16,392 nt of DNA from a virus (IMGVR_UViG_2541047751_000017), one strand, 5' to 3'; positions 635 through 16,392 are shown, numbered from the stretch's first letter. Notes: generated from the letters alone by a model not told the origin. A program made the numbers and translations.

Positions 635-2740
635 TTATTGAGCTTCTTTTTGTGATGCCTGTGCGACTCTGGTGAGCGATTGTGTGACCGTACTGATCGC
701 TCTGTCATATGCTGTGCTACCTTTTGGCGTATTTGCCAGACGTAACAAGGCATTTCGTATAACAGGGCTTTCGTATGCCTTCGCTGCTCCGCCTACGGCA
801 CCAGCAGCAGGAACAACAAACGCAGCCGTTTTTAGCATCCCCGCTAATACTGCTGCGTTTATGATGCCACCACCAACTAACAAACCATAAAGCTGCTGAC
901 CATTTAAGTTTTGAACGTTCGCTTTTGCCGCGTGTCTTGTATCGTTGAGGTATTTAATAACGCCGTCCAGTTCCTTTCCATGTACGCCTTTAAAGAAAGT
1001 TGCTGATTGCTTCCTGTTCCGGTGTAACGCATTAATAAACTTCTCAACACTGATATTTCCAGACGGATCAGTCGCCTTATCTACAGCATTCTGAACTATG
1101 GCTGCTCGTGCGTTTTGCCTACCATTGTCATCCAGAAGCCTGTAAAGCTGAGAACGTTCTGATGGGTTTTGGCTAAAAACGAGTTTTGTTACATCCTCAG
1201 GCGTGGCCTTGCCGCTGGCTATTGCCTTTTGAACGCGCGTTCTTCCCATCATGTCATTAAATTTAGACCATGAGCGATCAACCCTTGCCATATTAATGGC
1301 TTCGTCTGCTCCAAGATTTTTGGCTACGGCTTTTTTCATATCCGCCGTATATGCCTTGTAGATAATATCGCTGGCTTTCTGGAGCGTATCTTTATCAACA
1401 GTGTCAGATGACGCCATAAATCGCTTTCGAAGATCGGTTCTGTTTTCCCTCGCCAGACGCAGGTCATTTGGTCCGCTGGTGATATCGTCTTTAAATTGCT
1501 GCAAGACTTTTACCGCGGCTCTATCCTGAGATTTGCCCGGGCGGCTTAACACGGCAATCTGATTGTCGATAGCTTTTACCGTGTTTGAGAGATCGACAGG
1601 GGTATCCCCCATAGCGTCAATTATGCGGTTATATCGCTTTCCTGCTGCCTCAATGAATTTTTGTTGCCCTTTAGTCGCAGATTCATAAAGCTGTTTATCA
1701 GAAATGCCACCCAGACCATCGCTAAATGTTCTGACTAAATTTTCTCGTGCTTGTTGTTGATTCAGCCGATTCTTACCGGTTCCAAAAAAAGGAACTCTTT
1801 CGCCTAATGTCTGAGCCTGACTCTGCATAAAGGTTTTATCTTTTAGCATGTCACTGGTCATTAACGGCAGATTTCTTTCCGATGCAAAGTCGACAGCAGC
1901 CTTTGCTTCAGGCGACATATCACCACGAACAGCCCTCGAAACCGCACTCGCTGTATTTTCCAGCCCCTTACCAATACCACCAATGCCAGCAGAAATTACC
2001 GTTTGTAACGGATCAATATCTTCTCCACCAGCAAGGCTAGTGGCTCCCTGTAGTGCTAAATCTGTAGCTGCTGATTTTCCTATGGCACCAAGCACCGTTC
2101 CAGCCCTGCCCGCTGGTGTAAACGCCAGCGCATTAGCCAGAAACGATGCCACGTCTTGCGGCGATAAACCCGGCTTGTTCAGAGCATAATCACCGGATGG
2201 CAGGGAAACGATAGTGTTACCCTTCTCATCCTGCCTTAATTTCGCTCCCATGCTCTGAAGAATCTTTTCCTGAGATGCGTCAGAGCCGAAAAGTTGAGAC
2301 CATCGAGCTTTTAGAGCATCCATGCTGAGTGAGGTTAACTCTGGGGCAAGGTCGACATTTTGCAGTCTCTCCATCTCTGGAGTCATTCGGCTTTCGCCTG
2401 TTATAGCATCGCGCATCGCAGCCCCAAGACTGGCTCCCTGTTCTGCTGAACGCTCAAGCCCCTCTCTTTGCTGAGTAGCTAACTTTGCATACCCTGACGC
2501 AAGAGAATTATCAGATGATGTATGTTGAATATTTTGAGTTGCTGATTGGGATCGGTCTATTTCATTCGTTGATGGTAGTGGATAGGCAGCATAAAAAGCC
2601 TGCTTAGCCTGCTCTACACTTTCTCCGGCTTGCGAGGCCACGACTTCATTGAAGTATTGCTCCTGAGCCTGCGCTTTTTGTTCTGGTGCTAACGCCTGAT
2701 ACTGTGGAGAGGCGATAACATCTTTCCATGCTTTAGCCAT
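635..2740 (-). CDS. Putative phage ejection/DNA-transfer protein, P22 gp16-like by position and size
   Basis: 701-aa ORF, last gene of a coupled operon; start overlaps the stop of the 473-aa gene by 1 nt (TAATG). Ala/Gln-rich with a Gly/Ala-rich hydrophobic C-terminal segment (LVGGGIINAAVLAGMLKTAAFVVPAAGAVGGAA). Family assignment is from size, order and composition only. Confidence 0.5.
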   Translation of the reverse strand: MAKAWKDVIASPQYQALAPEQKAQAQEQYFNEVVASQAGESVEQAKQAFYAAYPLPSTNEIDRSQSATQNIQHTSSDNSLASGYAKLATQQREGLERSAEQGASLGAAMRDAITGESRMTPEMERLQNVDLAPELTSLSMDALKARWSQLFGSDASQEKILQSMGAKLRQDEKGNTIVSLPSGDYALNKPGLSPQDVASFLANALAFTPAGRAGTVLGAIGKSAATDLALQGATSLAGGEDIDPLQTVISAGIGGIGKGLENTASAVSRAVRGDMSPEAKAAVDFASERNLPLMTSDMLKDKTFMQSQAQTLGERVPFFGTGKNRLNQQQARENLVRTFSDGLGGISDKQLYESATKGQQKFIEAAGKRYNRIIDAMGDTPVDLSNTVKAIDNQIAVLSRPGKSQDRAAVKVLQQFKDDITSGPNDLRLARENRTDLRKRFMASSDTVDKDTLQKASDIIYKAYTADMKKAVAKNLGADEAINMARVDRSWSKFNDMMGRTRVQKAIASGKATPEDVTKLVFSQNPSERSQLYRLLDDNGRQNARAAIVQNAVDKATDPSGNISVEKFINALHRNRKQSATFFKGVHGKELDGVIKYLNDTRHAAKANVQNLNGQQLYGLLVGGGIINAAVLAGMLKTAAFVVPAAGAVGGAAKAYESPVIRNALLRLANTPKGSTAYDRAISTVTQSLTRVAQASQKEAQ

Positions 2741-4161
2741 TAATCACCCCATAGTGAAGAAAAGTTACTGCTGGCTGCTGGCTGTGATACCTGCTCAGAT
2801 TGCGGCAATGTCTGCGACGAAGAAGAAGTTCCTCTGTCAACTGCTGAAATAACCCGCAAAGCATCATAAGCTCGACCAGAAGCAGCTTTCAGCGAATTGA
2901 ACTGGTTTTCCATCTTCCGGCGCTTGGTATCAATGGTTTTTGTGGAGTCGCCAGGCTGAGGGAAATACATTTGATAATATTTTGACATTTCAGCAGGTAC
3001 GATGGCTGCCCCTGTTTCCTGACGGAGTATTGCCATTATTGCGTCATTAGCATTAACAACGTATTGCTGTTCTGTTGGGCTGAGCGTTAAGTTAGCCAGC
3101 GTCCCATTACCCAAAGCATTATTAATGATCGCCACTCGCTGTGGGCTAAGCTGGTCTTTCAGTGTATCTATTGAATCAAGAGCATCCCTAACCCTGTATG
3201 CAAATCCAGCAGCTTTTTTAGCCCCTTCTGGCGACTTTTCCATGATCTTTTGGGCTGTTGGCAAAGCTATTGGACGAAACCCATCTCCAGATATTGGCTG
3301 GTTTAGTTTTCCCTGCTCTTCACTTCCGTCTGTGTAGTATTTTGTGACAGTGCCATCATCGTTTTCTCTAACACTCATTAATTTTTTGGCGTTTGTATTA
3401 ATTCCAGCCGCTGCCGCAAATGCCGCCGCCCCCTCTGGATCCGCCTTTAACATTTGAGCGTACTGATTGTAATTCTGCATTGCTGCTGTTGGTGCATATG
3501 CTGACGTTAACGCATTTGCTCGGCTAATATCCTGCCCTCTCGCCTGAAGTGCTTCGCCAGCCTGATTGCTGCGGATTGTTTCTGCCAACTTGCCACGCTC
3601 AATATCCCGACCTTCCATTTGATCTTTGATATCGAAATACTTCTCATGACCGAGAGAAAACAGTGCCATACTACCAGCAAGCCGCTGGAACCCCTGTGGA
3701 TCATTAACATGCATTTCGGCAACAGACTCAGGAGAAATTCCCAAGCGACGCATTTCATCTTCGTTATCTGCTATGAATTTTCCAAATGCCCCAGTTCCGA
3801 GCGAAGATGCGATTTGAGCACTAGTCGCAAGATGACCAATAGAATTTCTCTGGTCGTCATCAATAAAGCCCATCCCTTTCTGAACGCTTTCAAATTCTTC
3901 TGGATACTCAGAAATAAGACTGCGCATTTTGTTTCTGTCTCCAGACTCAAAAGCCCCGGCATATGCTTTCTGAAACTCTGCTTTACGCTGTTGTTGACGT
4001 GCCTGCTGATTAATCTCAGCAACGCCTCTTAGCCCCTGTAGCGCCATTAAACCTACGTTTGGCTGCTGCTGATACTGCACAGGCTGAGGAACGGAAGAAC
4101 GAGGAGCATTATCATTTTGCGGTGCCATGCTAGGCAGCCCGCCAAGTTGCCATGTCGCCAT
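2740..4161 (-). CDS. Putative phage ejection/DNA-transfer protein, P22 gp20-like by position and size
   Basis: 473-aa ORF (P22 gp20 is about 471 aa, recalled from memory). 1-nt start/stop overlaps with both neighbours. Gln/Ala-rich, no recognisable catalytic motif. Confidence 0.5.
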   Translation of the reverse strand: MATWQLGGLPSMAPQNDNAPRSSVPQPVQYQQQPNVGLMALQGLRGVAEINQQARQQQRKAEFQKAYAGAFESGDRNKMRSLISEYPEEFESVQKGMGFIDDDQRNSIGHLATSAQIASSLGTGAFGKFIADNEDEMRRLGISPESVAEMHVNDPQGFQRLAGSMALFSLGHEKYFDIKDQMEGRDIERGKLAETIRSNQAGEALQARGQDISRANALTSAYAPTAAMQNYNQYAQMLKADPEGAAAFAAAAGINTNAKKLMSVRENDDGTVTKYYTDGSEEQGKLNQPISGDGFRPIALPTAQKIMEKSPEGAKKAAGFAYRVRDALDSIDTLKDQLSPQRVAIINNALGNGTLANLTLSPTEQQYVVNANDAIMAILRQETGAAIVPAEMSKYYQMYFPQPGDSTKTIDTKRRKMENQFNSLKAASGRAYDALRVISAVDRGTSSSSQTLPQSEQVSQPAASSNFSSLWGD

Positions 4162-4838
4162 TAGAATCCAAGCCCCCCAACAAGACCAATAAGCCCACCA
4201 CCAATAGCGCCGGCCGCAGTTCCTATTCCAGGAACAACGGAACCAAGTTGCGCACCCGCTAAAGCGCCTGATGCTGCCCCACCAATACCACGCGCAAGAC
4301 TGGATGGCTGCTGCGCCTGACCTGCACGAATAGCGCCAAGCCCCTGCAAGAGTTGTCCGGTATTATTGGCGTAGTTTTGCCCTGCCGTTGCCTGCCCTGA
4401 TGCCGCATTCATCCCGACATTTAGCAGGTTTCCATAATTTTGCATTTGCCCACTGAGCCAATTGTTATAAAGCATGGGCGCAATGGAAGATAACTGGTTA
4501 CTGGTAGCTGTTGAGCCAAGCCCCCCGGTAGCTTCTGCTGAGACAAGGTTCTGATAACGGGCCTGATCTGCCTGTGTTTTATATAAACCAGAACCAAAGA
4601 AATCATTCGCGGCTTTATTCTGCCCTTCCAGAGTCATCAGTCCTTGTAGTTGTTGTAAAGCAGGCAATCCGACTTCTGCATACGGCTTGAGATTATTCAT
4701 CACCGTATTCCACTGCTCGCGCTGCAAATCAATTGCCTGCTGCTGGGCCTTCGCCTGAGCTTTAGAGGCACCACCATCACCGCCTTTTTCGTATACGGCA
4801 CGATTGAGATGTTTATGAGCTATGTGGGTAATTAACAT
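4161..4838 (-). CDS. Putative phage ejection/DNA-transfer protein, P22 gp7-like by position and size
   Basis: 225-aa ORF (P22 gp7 is about 229 aa, recalled). N-terminal YEKGGDGGAS motif, Gln/Ala-rich centre, Gly-rich hydrophobic C-terminus (GIGTAAGAIGGGLIGLVGGLGF). Overlaps the upstream 153-aa gene by 7 nt. Confidence 0.5.
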   Translation of the reverse strand: MLITHIAHKHLNRAVYEKGGDGGASKAQAKAQQQAIDLQREQWNTVMNNLKPYAEVGLPALQQLQGLMTLEGQNKAANDFFGSGLYKTQADQARYQNLVSAEATGGLGSTATSNQLSSIAPMLYNNWLSGQMQNYGNLLNVGMNAASGQATAGQNYANNTGQLLQGLGAIRAGQAQQPSSLARGIGGAASGALAGAQLGSVVPGIGTAAGAIGGGLIGLVGGLGF

Positions 4839-5293
4839 TCGCTGAATTCCTTATATTGTTGCCGAGTTAACTGATAAAGCGTTACGCCGACGGGTTTACC
4901 ACATCTGATATAAGCATCATCAAGGTGACCAACACGGGTAGCGCCAAGCAAACGGATAATTGCCCGTCCGTATTTCGTGGTGTCAGGAACCATAGTAATG
5001 CTGTTAAGGAATGGTGAGTTTTCGAGAAGCCATTTGCAGAATAATCGATGCCCTTGCAGTGCATATTCACCACGGAATCCGGGGTCGTACACCGCATGGC
5101 ATTCAACAACGCTATGCCAGAAGTTACGCACTTCATGAACGCCAGCCAGCACTAATCCTTCGTAGATGCCGAGATATACCGCATCAGGCTTGATGTAGTA
5201 CGTGTGCCCCGGCTCAACAATATTTTCGGTATTGCCTGGCTCGTTAAGAAAGGCCTGTAATCGCACAGGGTTATCAATAAATTTTAGTTCCAT
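4832..5293 (-). CDS. Hypothetical protein, first large gene of the ejection-protein-like operon (P22 gene-14 position)
   Basis: 153-aa ORF with ATG start at 5293, protein-like composition, co-oriented and overlapping the next gene. Confidence 0.55.
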   Translation of the reverse strand: MELKFIDNPVRLQAFLNEPGNTENIVEPGHTYYIKPDAVYLGIYEGLVLAGVHEVRNFWHSVVECHAVYDPGFRGEYALQGHRLFCKWLLENSPFLNSITMVPDTTKYGRAIIRLLGATRVGHLDDAYIRCGKPVGVTLYQLTRQQYKEFSEC

Positions 5294-5309
5294 GCGATGC
5301 CATCCATTT

Positions 5310-5471
5310 TCACATACAGCCTGCCAGCGCCTTATCTATTAACCCTCGTGCAATTTCATGCAGAGTTGGCGCTACTCCAATTCCTGATTTTTTACGCTGC
5401 TCTTCCTGAATTTTCTTTATCGCTTCCATTTGCTTCTCACTTATCAATACCGGCTTTACTGAAATAGCCAT
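5310..5471 (-). CDS. Possible small ribbon-helix-helix-like DNA-binding protein (53 aa); not in the ORF track
   Basis: Own translation of the minus strand: MAISVKPVLISEKQMEAIKKIQEEQRKKSGIGVAPTLHEIARGLIDKALAGCM. ATG at 5471 is preceded by AAGGGGG 4 nt upstream. Pattern is short strand, helix, G-rich turn, helix, as in Arc/CopG/ParD-type proteins. Stop lies 16 bp from the 153-aa start. Confidence 0.3.
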   Translation of the reverse strand: MAISVKPVLISEKQMEAIKKIQEEQRKKSGIGVAPTLHEIARGLIDKALAGCM

Positions 5472-5504
5472 AACGCCCCCTTAGAACTGTATAAAACAAC
5501 AGTT

Positions 5505-5510
5505 ATTATA
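5505..5510 (-). promoter_or_regulatory. Candidate -10 hexamer (TATAAT on minus strand) for the downstream operon
   Basis: Perfect TATAAT on the minus strand in the AT-rich gap between the terminator and the small ORF RBS; no convincing -35 at 17 bp. Confidence 0.25.
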
Positions 5511-5566
5511 GTTTCACAAATCGCAATATTCATCATCGTAATTGCAAAATATGAAACAAATAGCAC

Positions 5567-5598
5567 AAAAAAATGCCACCGCTCAGTAGCTGGTGGCA
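5567..5598 (-). terminator. Rho-independent terminator ending the primase operon
   Basis: Inverted repeat TGCCACC (5574-5580) / GGTGGCA (5592-5598) with an 11-nt loop; on the minus strand the stem is followed by a 7-U run (plus-strand A run 5567-5573). Confidence 0.55.
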
Positions 5599-5792
5599 TC
5601 GTTCTGTGTGTCAGGTTTTGACAGGTTTTTTATGGACTCTAAAAACTATATTTATGGTGTCGCATTACTCTTCACGGCAGGCGCTTTTCAGTTCTGCCCT
5701 TGCTTCTGGCTCCATTGGTAATTTGATTCGCGATCAGCTATGCGGATGGTTTGCTGAACAGGCATAACAACTTCTCAGAGGCTGTTTTTTGA

Positions 5793-5811
5793 ACTACGAA
5801 AATTTCGTAGT
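5793..5811. promoter_or_regulatory. Perfect palindrome ACTACGAAA-a-TTTCGTAGT, putative protein-binding site in the origin region
   Basis: 9-bp arms with a 1-bp centre; no adjacent U-run in the correct position on either strand, so not a terminator. Confidence 0.3.
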
Positions 5812-5848
5812 GCTCACTTTCAAAAACGTCACGCCCTTGTACACAGGA

Positions 5849-5869
5849 TTTTACGAAAGTCTCGTAAAA
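5849..5869. promoter_or_regulatory. Palindrome TTTTACGA-aagtc-TCGTAAAA, putative protein-binding site
   Basis: 8-bp perfect inverted repeat with 5-bp spacer, between the first palindrome and the iterons. Confidence 0.3.
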
Positions 5870-5919
5870 CACTCTCTGATGCCAGCCAGGTGTTGTGCGC
5901 ATCAATTCAGTCACATTGT

Positions 5920-6030
5920 GTTGGTTCAAAATACCGTGTTGTTGGTTCAGTGTTGGTTCAATAAAAAGAATAAAATCCTTATAAAACAATACTCTTTACA
6001 AATTGAACCAACTGAACCAACTGAACCAAC
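5920..6030. repeat. Iteron array, putative replication origin: six copies of GTTGGTTCA, three direct and three inverted, around a 43-bp AT-rich spacer
   Basis: GTTGGTTCA at 5920-5928, 5941-5949, 5952-5960; reverse complement TGAACCAAC at 6004-6012, 6013-6021, 6022-6030 (tandem 9-bp period); AT-rich spacer 5961-6003. Lies just 3' of the primase-helicase gene. Confidence 0.6.
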
Positions 6031-6055
6031 ACCTTTTCTACGCACATGAAGAAGC

Positions 6056-8815
6056 TCATTCTTCAGATGAGTTATAATCTCCTGGCTGGTAATTGAGTAC
6101 ATAAACGTTTATTTGTCGTCCCTGAATACGTGGTGATTTTCTTTGGTATCCACGACCGCTGTTTGGTGGGGTTAGCATCCCGGCTTTTTTCAACACTTCA
6201 GCAAACTGTTTTGCGTTGAAACCACATGCGATCTCCTTTTCAAATGTGGCCGGGAATGTGTAGAAAATCATTGGGCTTTCGTCATGTTCTCCACGCTGAC
6301 GGTATCCGGCTAAATCTTTGATGGGCAAATCTGCCGGGCTGTATGGAAATGGTGCAAAACGGCTAAGCCCATAGGCATTAAGAAATGCCTCCGTTTGTTC
6401 AATAATCTGCTGATGCTCTTTGTTACCTGTGCCGAACTCACGCAACCATGCGTTATAGCTGTGCTGTATCGCATCACGGCATGTCTGAGCATCCCAGCCT
6501 GTTACAACCTCGCCTAACAACAATGCGGCCTCCAGAATGGCAAATCGCGCGGCTACACGGTGAACCTGCTCACCATAATCGGATGGGATCAGGCTTCTCC
6601 ATCTGCTTTCGCAATCACGAACGGTTTTAATAGCCTGTTGCTGGTGGTCTGCCAGCCATTTAATCCACTCACGCCCGGACGCGCCGTGGTGATGCTGGTA
6701 AGCGTCTTTCAGTGCGTCTGCGTGCTGTTTTCCGTTCTGGTAATCGTGAAAGCGTACTGCTTTACTCAACGGAATATTCAGCAGTCGCACCAGTTGCCCG
6801 GCTTTGGTTTTTCGCCCGGAAGTAGCGATAAATGTTTCTAAATCCATTTCTCCGGTGCTGATTGCCACTGTACGCCAACGTTTTAGATCCCGGTTTCCAC
6901 CATCTTTAGCGCCTTGCAGTTTCCCTACACCGTTAAATAACGCATAGGCAGACTGTGAAACGCTGACAGGATCAGCGCCCTGACCAACTTCATCAAGCGG
7001 CATTAGTCCGTCATTGTGGGCGGCGGCCTCATTTGCCAGCCCCAGCGCGGTTCCGTACCACGTCAGCCGCAGTAAATCAGGGTTGCCGTATAAGCTGCTC
7101 GCCACGTTTGCCGTGGTGGTCTTACCTGCGCTCGACTGCTCATAGAAATGAATGCCGAACCCGTCAGCGCCCACCAGCCCAATCAATGGCGCTGCCAGTG
7201 CTGCGCCGATCCCGGTCATCATTGAATAGTTACCAAAGGCCAGACGCGCCACGTTATCACGCCAGCTTTTCGCGCTCCCTGAGACGGTATATCCGGCTGC
7301 GGCTGAGCTTCTCCCGCTGAACAGCACAGGATTTTCAGGTGTTCCGATGATTTCCCCATCAGGCATGATGTACGCTCCGCATTGCCAGCCAGTGGCATGA
7401 GCAACACGCCACAATTCACGAGAGCCACTGCGTTGTAGCCAGTCTGCCAGTATTGCTCTGAGGCTGCTTTTGGTCGTGACATTTACCCCACCAGCTTTAA
7501 GTGTGCGCCATCCTTCACGTTCACCAATATCAGCCAGTGGAATGGCAGCGGTTGTCGGCGTTTCAGAACCAAACGACAGCCAGCGAAGAATGAGATACTG
7601 GTCTTTATCGTCTCTGCCAGTACCGATAACGCTTAACGGAGAACATAACCAGCTTTCGTTATTGATGATTTCTCCACTCTGGCTGTCAGCTCTCGGAGAT
7701 ACCCAATAAATACCATCCTCGCGGCTTTCTATTCTTGGTTTCAGTGGGTCGGTATCCATAACCTTAAAATCGCTTCCCTCAATGGTCTGTGGCTCCTGTT
7801 TCACGCCATTACCCTGTGGTTGGTACATTGACTTATTGAACGCTTCTGTGGCGCATTTAATGCCGTGTTTTTGGTGGTAATCATTCCAGTCTGCTTTGTG
7901 ATCTGTCGGGGGTAATGCCACCCATCCAGAAACAGATAAAGCTGCTTTTTCTGCTGCTATTCTCCCCGTGTTTTGTCTTCCTTCGCTGTGGTCGTTATCC
8001 GCAGCAATGATGATTTGTGCTGAAGGAAATTTATCCCGCAGTACCTGGGCGACATATAACAGGTTCCCGGCATCAATCGCCGCCACTGTCAGCGCCTCTG
8101 GACGAATTAAATGGGCAGATAATGCCGTTGCCAGCCCTTCTGTAATTAAGATGCTCTGTGTTGTTTCTGGCGCGTTTATGGCGTGATATGCCCCCCGCTT
8201 TGCTGAACCTCTCAGGAGTCTTTTTTCACCATGTGAGGTAATAGTCTGTGCTGCTGTGACTGCGCCGGATTTATCCACCAGCGCCAGCAACAGAGATCCA
8301 TCGGGCAACACGGGGAATGTAAAATCACCTACCCCTTTCGCAACCAGATAATCAGATTTGCCGTTTACAGCCTTTCTGCGCATGTCATCAAACTGACGGG
8401 AAAACGTATCCCGTCTTTGTTGTTCGTCCTTCTCTGCCCTTTTCAGGCGCTCCTGTTCGCGTCGCTGGCGCTCGGTTTCCAGTTGTTCCCGTTTCTGGCT
8501 GGTGGCTTCTGGTGTTTCCGTTGTCCGGTAATCAATACCCAGAACATCAGCGGCAAGAAGCGCCGCCTCTGTTGTGTCGCAGTTATTTACGCGTTTAATT
8601 AAATCCAGCCCATCACCAGCGCCGCACTGATTACAGATGAAGCTACCGCGCCCGTTGTCATCGAACCGGAATCGATCTTTGCCCCCACATGCAGGGCAGG
8701 GAGCATGACGGCGCGGAGAGTCAGGGACATTTATGTTCAGGCAGCCCAGCACATGAGGCCAGTTGTTTTCAGACGCACTGATAACCTGACGGATAAGATC
8801 AATGTTTCGCATCAC
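6056..8815 (-). CDS. Primase-helicase, P4 alpha-like (zinc ribbon, TOPRIM-type primase domain, P-loop NTPase domain)
   Basis: 919-aa ORF. N-terminal CPACGG...CNQCG zinc-binding motif, ITEGLATA (EGYATA-like) and AADNDH TOPRIM-type motifs, Walker A SSAGKTT, charged coiled-coil linker (ERQRREQERLKRAEKDEQQRRD). Track start is GTG at 8815; ATG at 8812 is an alternative. Confidence 0.85.
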   Translation of the reverse strand: MMRNIDLIRQVISASENNWPHVLGCLNINVPDSPRRHAPCPACGGKDRFRFDDNGRGSFICNQCGAGDGLDLIKRVNNCDTTEAALLAADVLGIDYRTTETPEATSQKREQLETERQRREQERLKRAEKDEQQRRDTFSRQFDDMRRKAVNGKSDYLVAKGVGDFTFPVLPDGSLLLALVDKSGAVTAAQTITSHGEKRLLRGSAKRGAYHAINAPETTQSILITEGLATALSAHLIRPEALTVAAIDAGNLLYVAQVLRDKFPSAQIIIAADNDHSEGRQNTGRIAAEKAALSVSGWVALPPTDHKADWNDYHQKHGIKCATEAFNKSMYQPQGNGVKQEPQTIEGSDFKVMDTDPLKPRIESREDGIYWVSPRADSQSGEIINNESWLCSPLSVIGTGRDDKDQYLILRWLSFGSETPTTAAIPLADIGEREGWRTLKAGGVNVTTKSSLRAILADWLQRSGSRELWRVAHATGWQCGAYIMPDGEIIGTPENPVLFSGRSSAAAGYTVSGSAKSWRDNVARLAFGNYSMMTGIGAALAAPLIGLVGADGFGIHFYEQSSAGKTTTANVASSLYGNPDLLRLTWYGTALGLANEAAAHNDGLMPLDEVGQGADPVSVSQSAYALFNGVGKLQGAKDGGNRDLKRWRTVAISTGEMDLETFIATSGRKTKAGQLVRLLNIPLSKAVRFHDYQNGKQHADALKDAYQHHHGASGREWIKWLADHQQQAIKTVRDCESRWRSLIPSDYGEQVHRVAARFAILEAALLLGEVVTGWDAQTCRDAIQHSYNAWLREFGTGNKEHQQIIEQTEAFLNAYGLSRFAPFPYSPADLPIKDLAGYRQRGEHDESPMIFYTFPATFEKEIACGFNAKQFAEVLKKAGMLTPPNSGRGYQRKSPRIQGRQINVYVLNYQPGDYNSSEE

Positions 8816-10591: not shown

Positions 10592-10782
10592 TTTTCACCA
10601 CCAAGAATTACCAGCTCTGCACGGGCATCGTTAACCAAAGATGAGCACGCTTTAATCGCATCCACGACATCAGCAGCGTCCATTTCTTCAGCCGAAAGAC
10701 TGACAGCAACCAGGACAGCCGCTGCTTGCTCGATTAATTGAAGTGCGGACGTAAGGCGAGGGGCATTAATTGAGTTATTCAT
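10588..10782 (-). CDS. Hypothetical small protein (64 aa)
   Basis: ATG at 10782; 8-nt overlap with the upstream gene. Confidence 0.5.
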   Translation of the reverse strand: MNNSINAPRLTSALQLIEQAAAVLVAVSLSAEEMDAADVVDAIKACSSLVNDARAELVILGGEK

Positions 10783-10993
10783 TGGTTGCCCCCGTTTTTA
10801 CTGGCATTTCGCCACCTTCCAGCAGGAAATGAACGTCACGAACGGCGAGATCCAATATCGCGAGTAACGCCTTCAGTCTTTCGTCTCGTGAGGGAGAGTT
10901 GCTCACCAGAATGTCGTTAATCACTTCTGTCAGTGTGATGATCTGGCTTGTGCGTTCGAGGGGATCCATATGCACATCGTAGGTTTTAATCAT
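10775..10993 (-). CDS. Hypothetical small protein (72 aa), short form of the 355-codon open frame
   Basis: Internal ATG at 10993 preceded by a near-ideal GGAGG at 6 nt. The residues just upstream in the long frame (AWRWH) look like an RBS read as codons rather than protein. Confidence 0.5.
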   Translation of the reverse strand: MIKTYDVHMDPLERTSQIITLTEVINDILVSNSPSRDERLKALLAILDLAVRDVHFLLEGGEMPVKTGATNE

Positions 10994-11842
10994 GTGCCAC
11001 CTCCATGCGGATACGACCAGCAAAAAAGCAGACGTGATCGCGCACCAGAGAACGGCGAGCATCGCGTTCAGACTCGGCAGCAATATGATGAATTTTGGCG
11101 GTAATTGTCGGGCAATCGCGGCGAACTGCGGCGATAATCCAGATAAATTGCGGTTTTTGGGTAGGGGTAGTAGCCAGCATGTGGCAGCCTCCATTCGATA
11201 GCATGTAACGCTACCACCGGAAACGCCAATTTCGCTGGTGGTAGCCCAGACAGGGTTGGCGTAACCGGCTCGAATGGATACCGGCGCTTCCGAAGAAGCC
11301 CCTGCCTGAGCCACCATTGATTGACAAAGGCGCTGGATTATACACCAACGCCCAAAAAATGGGTGAGTCAGACCTACGACATAAAAAAAGACGCTCGGCG
11401 CGTCATATGTCGCCATTCGATTTACCAGGACGCCAATCCCGGCACCCGTTTTATGAGGTGCCTTATAACCATAAACCGTGTTGCCGCATAACGGCAAGCT
11501 CTTTTTTATGGACTCCGAAAACTCACTATTGGAAGAACCAGAAGCACAGTACATCGCGCTCATTTCGTTAACGTCACGCGCGTGGACGAAGGTTTTTGTG
11601 GAGTCACTACGCGAGCAGAGAAAGCCATCTACGACCAGAAATTCTCTGGCGCAGCCGCTGACCTTCTCAACGCTAACACCATCGACCGTAATTTCTGACA
11701 TAGTTAAGGCATCCGCTCCTACCACCAGCAAATGATAAACTTTGCTTGTATCTGCTGTATTAATGCCTGACTTTGCCGTCATATTGCTGGATTTTGGCGA
11801 CATACCAGCCAGTGAAAATGTCTTCTTCTGGGCGGTTAGCAT
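10775..11842 (-). CDS. Alternative long form: 355-codon open frame from a strongly initiated ATG at 11842; possibly a fused or frameshifted gene
   Basis: ATG at 11842 has GGAGG at 7 nt and overlaps the stop of the upstream 60-aa gene. The frame stays open for 355 codons, but residues encoded between about 11000 and 11250 are Trp/Cys-rich and not protein-like. Confidence 0.25.
11208..11245. promoter_or_regulatory. Inverted repeat GCTACCACC / GGTGGTAGC with 18-nt spacer, possible RNA stem-loop or operator
   Basis: Perfect 9-bp arms at 11210-11218 and 11237-11245; no adjacent U-run, so not a classical terminator. Confidence 0.25.
11481..11508 (+). terminator. Plus-strand terminator-like hairpin, antisense to the main operon
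   Basis: Stem TTGCCG (11481-11486) / CGGCAA (11492-11497), 5-nt loop, 4-nt spacer, then T6 (11503-11508). A TTGACA hexamer sits at 11321-11326 without a well-spaced -10. Confidence 0.25.
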
Positions 11843-13574: not shown

Positions 13575-13603
13575 TCGCAACGAAAAATGGATTTTCGTTG
13601 CGA
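13575..13603. promoter_or_regulatory. Perfect 12-bp inverted repeat with 5-bp spacer, putative operator in the alpA promoter region
   Basis: TCGCAACGAAAA-atgga-TTTTCGTTGCGA at 13575-13603, in the 105-bp gap between the 293-aa gene stop and alpA. No U-run follows the stem on either strand. Confidence 0.4.
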
Positions 13604-14493: not shown

Positions 14494-14586
14494 AGCGTAA
14501 CCTTTCGCGCTGCCTTAAAGAGTGACCGGAACAGGCGGTAAGGCTTTCCGCTTTTCGCCCCGTCGGGCTAGTTCCGGTCTGTTCGG

Positions 14587-16008: not shown

Positions 16009-16080
16009 GCTGCTTGGTGATTTTTACTGATAGCTTATTCGATATTCTGAATCAGAAACAGCAGTGCATTCACTCCATGG

Positions 16081-16392
16081 GTGTCTGTTGGACTGGGTTA
16101 TGCACGGATACATCATAAGGCAACATATACTGATACCTCCTGGAATAAATCTGGTGAGGTGAGCGATATTTCTGCGTTGCATTACTCGGGATATGATAAC
16201 AATTTCGCATGGAGCATTGGGGCCGGTGTTCGCTATGACATAACCCCGGATATCGCTCTTGACCTCAGCTATCGCTATCTGGATGCTGGTAAATCCTCCC
16301 TGTCTTACAAGGATGCAGAAGGGGATAAATATAAATCAGAGGCTGACGTTAAAAGTCATGACATCATGTTTGGTGTGACTTATAACTTCTGA
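16081..16392 (+). pseudogene. 5'-truncated outer-membrane beta-barrel protein gene, Ail/Lom/OmpX/PagC family (C-terminal about 100 codons)
   Basis: Ends with a beta-barrel terminus (...IMFGVTYNF, terminal Phe) and alternating aromatic strands (YDITPDIALDLSYRY). An in-frame TGA at 16048 and absence of signal peptide or RBS upstream show the N-terminal part is missing. Confidence 0.6.

Follow-up and report, generated by a model that had tools for sequence, protein, structure and literature searches.

A probable origin unit directly downstream of the TOPRIM-DUF927 primase-helicase gene of an EcCIMP1-like phage satellite

What is the role of the block of short repeats that directly follows the primase-helicase gene of an Escherichia coli phage satellite, and which part of the encoded protein reads it? 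We address this question in a viral DNA of 16,392 nucleotides (IMGVR_UViG_2541047751_000017; the whole stretch is called the window below). The window carries the genes int, alpA, antA and ash and a primase-helicase gene of the TOPRIM-DUF927 type, and it is an EcCIMP1-like phage-inducible chromosomal island (PICI), that is, an E. coli phage satellite. We find that the repeats are very probably a cognate origin unit for the TOPRIM-DUF927 primase-helicase, of the type described for Staphylococcus aureus pathogenicity islands (SaPIs) and PICIs. An origin at such a position is what a PICI specialist would expect. What goes beyond this expectation is the series of specificities linking the C-terminal domain of the protein to the iterons, the mirrored architecture with two units and the cargo that recurs between the units.

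We searched the whole window on both strands and found six exact copies of the 9-mer GTTGGTTCA, three on the + strand (5920-5928, 5941-5949 and 5952-5960) and three on the - strand (6004-6012, 6013-6021 and 6022-6030), with no further exact copy anywhere in the 16.4 kb. By arithmetic, about 0.13 exact copies of a 9-mer are expected on both strands. When up to one mismatch is allowed, there are 12 matches compared to 3.8 +/- 2.0 in shuffled sequences, and none of 200 shuffles reached 12. An earlier note on this DNA had described three direct and three inverted 9-bp iterons around a 43-bp AT-rich tract, located just 3' of the primase-helicase gene. The exact-match scan confirms this arrangement as well as the location, with the last iteron ending 25 nt past the stop codon. 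Within the spaced set, the start-to-start distances are 21 and 11 bp, which corresponds to about two and one helical turns. The GC content reaches its minimum in the spacer (0.24 in 50-nt windows), and the spacer is presumed to be the site of melting.

The origin of PICIs directly follows the 3' end of rep, and in it two iteron sets flank an AT-rich region, as determined for EcCICFT073 by a plasmid assay (PMC6092414). Both properties are present in the window: the distance of 25 nt places the block immediately 3' of the initiator gene, and the opposed sets around the AT-rich region comprise three exact copies each. No DnaA box with at most one mismatch was found in 5780-6060, which fits a self-loading system that is independent of the host initiator. 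A search of the whole window against Rfam yielded no match within 5300-6100, and a literature search for the iteron word returned unrelated primer and oligonucleotide matches only.

The same geometry recurs across genera of the Enterobacterales. We scanned one genome per species with the helicase half of the protein (amino acids (aa) 346-919) as the query and obtained 67 homologous loci with 51-100% identity from Escherichia, Enterobacter, Klebsiella, Citrobacter, Pantoea, Erwinia, Serratia, Pectobacterium, Yersinia and other genera. Within the 330 bp past the stop codon that were examined, about 55 of the 67 loci contain a repeated 9-mer with one consistent geometry. The tight set of these loci has two to three copies and starts 21-46 nt past the stop codon. 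The spacer measures 42-45 bp in most loci and has an A+T content of ~70-90%, where spacers of 52 bp correspond to 43 bp plus one decayed iteron. After the spacer, the opposite-strand set with spacings of ~11 and 21 bp recurs in other genera. Elsewhere in these ~20-kb loci, the iterons occur as 0-3 scattered copies. Number and spacing of the iterons are polymorphic (L002 3641-3761; L003 3559-3660; L065 downstream of the gene). For instance, the spaced set of E. coli NGF1 and MP1 has distances of 21+21 bp, E. coli B2.3 has two tight iterons only and one Erwinia metagenome-assembled genome has seven tight iterons.

Eight iteron words are found among the loci: GTTGGTTCA, which is present in most loci, GTTGTCTCA, GTCGGTTCA, ACGGGTTAY, GTGGGTTAT, ACTTATCCC, GGTCGGGTA and GGTCGGTTT. 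Two motifs are constant across the iteron classes, namely TTTTATAAGG(A/T)TTT in the spacer and CCTGGCTGGC beyond the spaced set. The latter lies within the centre motif of the window (5883-5892, read on the - strand) and is present in the origins of all iteron classes. Possible roles of the centre motif are a priming site, a site for a host factor or a recombination hotspot. In Serratia L034 and Rouxiella L061, the position of CCTGGCTGGC reads GCTGGTGG, the Chi sequence.

The iteron word changes together with one part of the protein. We aligned 49 full-length homologues and searched for alignment columns by which the GTTGGTTCA class, with 35 proteins, can be told apart completely from the others. 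For the GTTGTCTCA class (five proteins), all six discriminating columns are found at aa >= 815 (840, 892 (R>G), 893 (K>R), 894 (S>V), 897 and 911). For the ACGGGTTAY class, 17 of the 18 discriminating columns are found at aa >= 815, between 821 and 904. The hypergeometric p-values for this clustering are 1.6e-6 (GTTGTCTCA) and 5e-15 (ACGGGTTAY), calculated on variable columns and not corrected for phylogeny. At aa 886-907, each iteron class has its own characteristic version of the segment GRGYQRKSPRI-GRQINVYVL. The ACGGGTTAY and GTGGGTTAT classes have a GGGTTA core in common and are similar in this segment, and the Pantoea GTCGGTTCA protein L040 carries S894T compared to the main class.

Comparisons between pairs of loci lead to the same domain. 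The proteins of L015 and L014 are 97% identical in the helicase core and 75% in the C-terminal domain; for L041 and L013, the values are 93% and 58%. The origins of L014 and L015 align base for base, and all of the ~11 iterons, in both orientations and in both units, change from GTTGGTTCA in L014 to GTTGTCTCA in L015 (GG to TC).

A larger exchange is observed in E. coli AF14 (L007). Here, the upstream genes are as in the window and the primase part (aa 1-345) is 85% identical, while the remainder of the protein is an unrelated DUF5906 helicase. The iterons directly past the gene are CCTGTACCA/CCTATACCA around an AT-rich stretch (L007 7856-7962). The helicase half is thus the only coding sequence that changes along with the iterons, and in E. 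coli the two are swapped jointly, as a single cassette. The primase-helicase gene itself is a mosaic (window 7781-8815 on the - strand versus L007 5476-6510), which indicates recombination inside the gene, at the linker between primase and helicase. AF14 also has a second CCTGTACCA/CCTATACCA block 1.1 kb on, after two small genes (L007 8965-9075), so that a layout with two blocks recurs with an unrelated helicase. Cassette exchange, discriminating columns and the concerted change of all iterons are three independent lines that point to the C-terminal ~105 residues as the likely iteron reader. As in PICIs and SaPIs, the iterons would then be specific for the C-terminal domain of their cognate initiator, a specificity suggested by both the co-variation and the cassette exchange.

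The domain content of the 919-aa protein is consistent with this assignment. It comprises a Zn-ribbon (aa 35-70), a Toprim domain (aa 222-319) and a DUF927 helicase (aa 366-644; Pfam E = 3.5e-47). Furthermore, aa 403-814 match PDB entry 8tch_A ('Pathogenicity island protein') with E = 1.4e-11, which groups the helicase core with staphylococcal pathogenicity-island proteins. By its DUF927 and 8tch_A matches, the protein resembles the Rep-type helicases that act as initiators in PICIs and SaPIs, and it would presumably be self-loading like them. In SaPI origins, it was found biochemically that a winged helix at the C-terminus of Rep reads the iterons (PMC9371898). When we compared 33 diverse C-terminal domains of the family to Pfam, nine matched HTH_56, the helix-turn-helix of Cch (best E = 2.5e-5). 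Searches of the PDB with the C-terminal domain, as a single sequence and as a profile, gave nothing meaningful. We infer that the C-terminal ~105 residues are a DNA-binding domain of the Cch/SaPI-Rep type that reads the iterons, and this domain may be a winged helix. Overall, the sequence comparisons strongly support that initiator and origin form a cognate pair, of a kind already known from SaPIs and PICIs.

The block of the window has a counterpart. In ~25 relatives, a second mirror-image unit is found directly after the first, and the whole origin measures ~260-310 bp. The second unit in those relatives consists of two to three spaced iterons, a spacer and an opposite-strand tight set of three. 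It is followed by CAC(C/T)TTTT-GCTTAT-TATATA and then by the next gene, which is often perC or the gene of a single-stranded DNA-binding protein (SSB). The E. coli elements of ABU 83972, strain 4750 and MP1 contain a complete second unit as well (3 + 3 iterons, 43-bp AT-rich spacer). It is inverted relative to the first and is found directly upstream of perC, at a distance of ~8.2-8.5 kb from the stop codon of the primase gene. By correspondence with ABU 83972, the second unit of the present element is outside the window, ~2.5 kb past its left end.

Split origins with 0.3-9 kb between the units are also found in Lonsdalea, Rosenbergiella, Chimaeribacter, Pantoea, Serratia, Leclercia and Cedecea. 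The cargo between the units differs by genus, and P22-like ejection genes are present there in E. coli and at one Leclercia locus only. The homology of the window to the contiguous origins stops just past CCTGGCTGGCATC, at ~5879/5880, which is the cargo junction; the split in Cedecea breaks at the same point. In E. coli, recombination breakpoints are found at 5862-5873 (matches that start at query position 83 or end at 94). The block at 5880-6030 appears to be one complete unit, half of a mirrored origin of two units that are separated by ~8 kb of cargo in this element. We found at least one copy of the iteron unit in 589 of the 5,426 complete E. coli genomes. For 149 E. coli records, the query is matched at best with 60-80% identity, and among the ten listed of these records the match is limited to the iteron block (query 137-258), as would be expected of a perC-type unit.

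By which mechanism could such a unit act? The co-variation suggests that the primase-helicase would bind the 9-bp iterons via its C-terminal ~105 residues. By homology to SaPI Reps, for which self-loading was demonstrated biochemically (PMC9371898), protomers on the two opposed sets would assemble on either side of the 43-bp AT-rich spacer and melt it, and they would become loaded as helicase rings with no need of a loader. Synthesis would then be primed by the fused Toprim primase domain, likewise judged by homology.

Several observations weigh against this interpretation. The C-terminal domain of the window itself matches HTH_56 with E ~0.1, which is below the cut-off, and an AlphaFold model of aa 680-919, which is based on a shallow alignment of 24 close homologues, is poor (mean predicted local distance difference test (pLDDT) 56; 33-53 over the C-terminal domain). 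For these two reasons, the fold of the domain is not established, and a helix-helix-beta-hairpin at aa 855-908 in the model is suggestive only. For the GTCGGTTCA class, only one of 11 discriminating columns is C-terminal (p = 0.76). This is expected, since these proteins are only ~60-80% identical overall. A GTTGGTTCA unit upstream of perC persists in AF14, which has the DUF5906 helicase, as well as in TW10690, which is riddled with insertion sequences and has lost the primase to them; thus, the repeats can exist without a cognate protein in cis. The perC-proximal unit of AF14 has 2 nt different from that of a cognate element with an identical PerC protein. Such orphan units are almost the same as the units of cognate elements, and a recent replacement of the cassette thus explains their presence. 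The orphan perC-proximal units neither support nor contradict selection on such units. In addition, the publication on EcCIMP1 is silent on replication or ori (PMC11773190), and in P4 the iteron block right after the alpha gene is crr, with ori 4.7 kb off.

The P4 layout leads to a rival explanation, in which the block is a crr-like cis enhancer: it would be bound by the initiator and be required for replication or assist it, with initiation at the perC-proximal unit or elsewhere and the protein bridging both. Complete elements indeed hold two homologous units ~8.2-8.5 kb apart, and the distant ori of P4 has the same type-1 repeats as its crr. However, each unit here has the composition of a full SaPI-like origin unit with opposed sets around a 43-bp AT-rich spacer, the units are contiguous in many relatives, and the helicase belongs to the SaPI-Rep/DUF927 lineage and not to the lineage of P4 alpha. 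The region right past rep is moreover the functional ori in SaPIs and EcCICFT073. We thus regard a crr-like role as unlikely, yet as a serious alternative, which is a variant of the same mechanism. The earlier note had proposed a SaPI/PICI-type origin bound by its own initiator. This is very likely, given the geometry in ~55 of 67 loci, the co-variation, the cassette swap, the 8tch_A match and the layout of EcCICFT073, but the block does not stand as the whole origin, as it is one of two units.

Two further explanations do not involve initiation. Folded as a single strand, the opposed iteron sets form a long hairpin of -29 kcal/mol (z = -7.1), and the second unit abuts the start region of perC, followed by the conserved GCTTAT-TATATA; hence the repeats could serve transcription instead of replication, either as an operator array that a transcription factor binds or, in the form of an RNA hairpin, as a terminator or attenuator that separates the primase operon from the genes downstream of it. 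Yet such a hairpin is a trivial outcome of inverted iterons. We rejected it as an intrinsic terminator, as no T-run follows it on the transcribed (-) strand. A scan of 5250-6150 detected no promoter-like site, and neither a promoter nor a terminator at 5880-6055; the sole terminator-like hairpins, at 5363-5383 (+) and 5575-5590 (-), are both outside the iteron block. Since the repeats also co-vary with the C-terminal domain of the helicase and accompany the helicase cassette irrespective of the downstream gene, a role in transcription is very unlikely. The same co-variation bears on the proposal that either the helper phage or the machinery for integration or cargo exchange uses the repeats as a packaging (pac) or recombination site. 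The packaging signal of EcCIMP1 is not known, diverse cargo is found exactly between the units in several genera, and the breakpoints in E. coli cluster beside the block. But it is the C-terminal domain of the helicase that the repeat word follows, rather than cargo, integrase or host genus, elements at thrW and yicC with different integrases have the same block, and the breakpoints are at the centre motif and not within the iterons. We consider this proposal extremely improbable.

Upstream of the iterons, as seen in the orientation of the window, there are two palindromes, which the earlier note had included in the origin and linked to the operator of alpA. The first is a perfect palindrome as described. 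The second is perfect in its 8-bp arms only, as its 5-bp centre is non-palindromic; it is a diverged copy of the first (87%), 57 bp apart, and its right arm coincides with the E. coli recombination breakpoints. Both are found in the ~400-bp leader of the downstream cargo module, and they travel with this module. Behind the DUF5906 replicon of L005 and L007, they are found without change. In E. coli B2.3 (L003), which has primase and iterons as in the window, other sequence takes their place, and none of the non-E. coli relatives has them. We thus reject the palindromes as a part of the origin. The half-sites in common with alpA are confirmed; the link to its operator is weak. The window contains ACGAAA..TTTCGT just twice, at 5796-5808 and, upstream of alpA, at 13580-13598, with no occurrence expected by chance. 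The internal spacing is 1 nt at 5796 versus 7 nt at alpA, and ABU 83972 and MP1 keep the 5796-type palindrome without an alpA-proximal one; a role as AlpA operators is thus not supported. A search of a phage collection gave one match of 38 nt, to a Klebsiella phage, at 5786-5823, which covers the first palindrome. The palindromes are probably a pair of sites for a dimeric regulator of the operon of the ejection genes and of hyp53, a 53-aa hypothetical gene downstream of the origin. The coordinates of all features are listed in Table 1.

Table 1. Coordinates of the features discussed in the text (window positions; strand. means none assigned)
Feature	Position	Strand	Basis or remark
Palindrome 1, ACTACGAAA-A-TTTCGTAGT	5793..5811	.	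Perfect, 9+1+9; belongs to cargo/ejection-gene module, not to origin
Palindrome 2, TTTTACGA-AAGTC-TCGTAAAA	5849..5869	.	Perfect 8-bp arms, non-palindromic 5-bp centre; not part of origin
Centre motif CCTGGCTGGCATC (- strand reading)	5880..5892	-	Conserved whatever the iteron class; midpoint of the two-unit origin of relatives
Spaced iteron set, three GTTGGTTCA at 5920, 5941, 5952	5920..5960	+	Orientation opposite to tight set
AT-rich spacer, 43 bp	5961..6003	.	36/43 A+T (84%)
Spacer motif TTTTATAAGGATTTT (- strand reading)	~5975-5990	-	Kept across iteron classes; remainder of spacer diverges
Tight iteron set, three head-to-tail GTTGGTTCA, 9-bp period	6004..6030	-	Gene-proximal set, starts 25 nt past stop codon
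Primase-helicase (PriRep), 919 aa, TOPRIM-DUF927	6056..8815	-	Open reading frame and Pfam domains
C-terminal domain, aa 815-919, putative iteron-recognition domain	6059..6373	-	Co-variation with iteron word
Segment aa 886-907, GRGYQRKSPRIQGRQINVYVL	6095-6160	-	Differs between iteron classes

Many E. coli strains have chromosomal islands that are 100% identical to this region. In ABU 83972 and strain 4750, the gene order is integrase, AlpA-type regulator, antirepressor, Ash-family protein, small genes, 'TOPRIM and DUF927' primase-helicase, P22-like ejection genes and perC, and the islands are integrated at tRNA-Thr (thrW) or beside yicC. EcCIMP1 of strain MP1 has the gene order and the primase type of the window, and it was shown experimentally to be a PICI that is induced and transduced by the P22-like phage Kapi1 (PMC11773190). 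The properties of a PICI are thus seen in the gene content of the window (int, alpA, pri-rep) and in the induction by a helper that is published for EcCIMP1. At the right side of the window, the identity with strain 4750 stops at 16053, which is 19 bp inside the 3' end of yicC, and the last 339 bp (16054-16392) do not continue into yicC as they do in strain 4750. The source of the window hence has another right flank or a tandem element.

Further observations concern the neighbouring genes. The homologues of the P22 ejection genes (635-5293, - strand) comprise a DUF2824/gp7-like gene, a gp20-like 'DNA ejection protein' and a gp16-like 'injection protein', and they are positioned between the two origin units of the satellite. 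The gp16-like gene varies by strain, with 701 aa in the window, while strain 4750 and MP1 have a lytic-transglycosylase form of 906 aa. The hyp53 gene (5310-5471, - strand) is present in most related elements of other genera with 43-85% identity, usually 0.5-6.5 kb past the primase gene and in one locus, L069, upstream of it instead. A GC-rich hairpin with a T-run is usually found in front of hyp53, at about -125 to -155 nt (window counterpart 5575-5590/5608, - strand). The hairpin may act as a regulated terminator, or a small RNA may have its 3' end there. An unannotated 64-aa ATG open reading frame (5573-5767, + strand), which has no Pfam match, is present in the conserved leader that extends between palindromes and hyp53. 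On the other side of the primase-helicase gene, a C4 antisense RNA (11234-11321, - strand; Rfam 79.5 bits) and the Hfq-binding RNA isrK (11384-11461, - strand; 67.1 bits) are both inside the open reading frame of a 355-aa 'ash family protein' (10775-11842). The MP1 annotation has an Icd-like protein and a partial ash gene here. The RNAs and this annotation suggest that the 355-aa frame may be a mis-call over a C4-icd-ant immunity module of the P1/P7 type. Finally, an int-alpA RNA (RF02996, 66 bits) is found at 14512-14578 (- strand), between the integrase and a hypothetical gene upstream of alpA.

What follows for the biology of these satellites? A wider reading that joins the observations, which we put forward tentatively and hold to be possible at best, is that a mirrored bipartite origin brackets variable cargo, with the CCTGGCTGGC centre as a recurrent point of cargo insertion or exchange in several genera. 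The initiator might bridge the two units as in the looping between ori and crr of P4, and occupancy of the perC-proximal tight set might couple replication to the expression of PerC, a virulence regulator. The variants of C-terminal domain and iterons might then amount to a readable recognition code, in which S894T goes with the change from GTTGGTTCA to GTCGGTTCA and RKSPRI to GRV-RE goes with GG to TC. Independent of this wider reading, EcCIMP1 is the experimentally studied representative of the family and is without a described origin; a defined origin together with its recognition domain would provide a minimal replicon for this PICI family. The definition of the origin would also explain the exchange of primase-helicase/origin cassettes between satellites, and the natural pairs with switched specificity are useful to understand how self-loading Rep helicases read DNA. 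Moreover, satellite cargo, i.e. the ejection genes and perC beside the second unit, would be embedded in the architecture of the origin.

Compared to known systems, the window does not resemble the classical origins of iteron plasmids (RepA/pi/TrfA), which have tandem direct iterons of 17-22 bp and DnaA boxes, because its repeats are 9 bp long, its sets are opposed and no DnaA box is found in 5780-6060. P4 alpha is a multifunctional primase-helicase with C-terminal iteron binding. According to the GenBank annotation of P4 (NC_001609), from which we took its layout, there are two separated cis regions with the same 8-9-bp repeats in both orientations, one of which (crr) lies directly past the gene. 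The elements of ABU 83972, strain 4750 and MP1 likewise have two separated regions with the same iterons, one of them after the gene, and P4 is the nearest precedent for such a pair of regions. In P4, replication requires both of them. The crr repeats each begin with a pair at a 9-bp period, followed by a spacer and inverted copies. However, the helicase of P4 is of the alpha type, whereas that of the window is DUF927 (with no similarity between the helicase half of the window and the DUF5906 half of AF14). Furthermore, crr is a tandem direct duplication of ~120-bp repeats, whereas the units here are inverted and each is single, and the second region of P4 is upstream of the operon, whereas the second unit here is downstream of the gene. 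A likeness to P4 origins had been suggested for this block; in P4, the block in the position after the alpha gene is crr and not ori. The Cch protein of SCCmec is like the family of the window in its combination of a DUF927 helicase with a C-terminal HTH_56 helix-turn-helix (PF18662), where the domain of the window itself is below threshold (E ~0.1).

Of the SaPI initiators, Rep and PriRep5 (Qiao et al. 2022, PMC9371898) are like the window in that ori follows right after rep, with at least two opposed iterons on each side of an AT-rich centre. In SaPI Rep, the C-terminal winged helix confers iteron specificity, and PriRep5 is a fusion of primase and Rep (PMC9371898). The helicase core of the window is homologous to the solved staphylococcal pathogenicity-island protein 8tch_A; the C-terminal domains share no detectable sequence similarity, with the 8tch match ending at aa 814. 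The SaPI iterons are 5-6 bp long compared to 9 bp here, and the window further differs in its Toprim/Zn-ribbon type of primase, the Gram-negative host, the regulation by AlpA and the mirrored duplicate of the origin. A close layout in a Gram-negative satellite with a demonstrated function is that of EcCICFT073 (Fillol-Salom et al. 2018, PMC6092414), an element of the same type (int-alpA-...-pri-ori-...-perC). Its initiator is a 584-aa 'DNA primase family protein' compared to the 919-aa TOPRIM-DUF927 fusion of the window, its iterons are of the TCTACC type instead of GTTGGTTCA, and its origin is contiguous, whereas the units of the window are split by ~8 kb of cargo. Reading this origin directly, we found two head-to-tail CTGTCTACC repeats 14 nt past the primase stop codon, an AT-rich stretch and inverted copies, ending in an inverted tight pair ~230 bp on. 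Thus, EcCICFT073 shares with the window an origin directly 3' of the primase/rep gene with iterons in two orientations around an AT-rich stretch, and for EcCICFT073 the function was shown by a pri-ori plasmid assay (PMC6092414).

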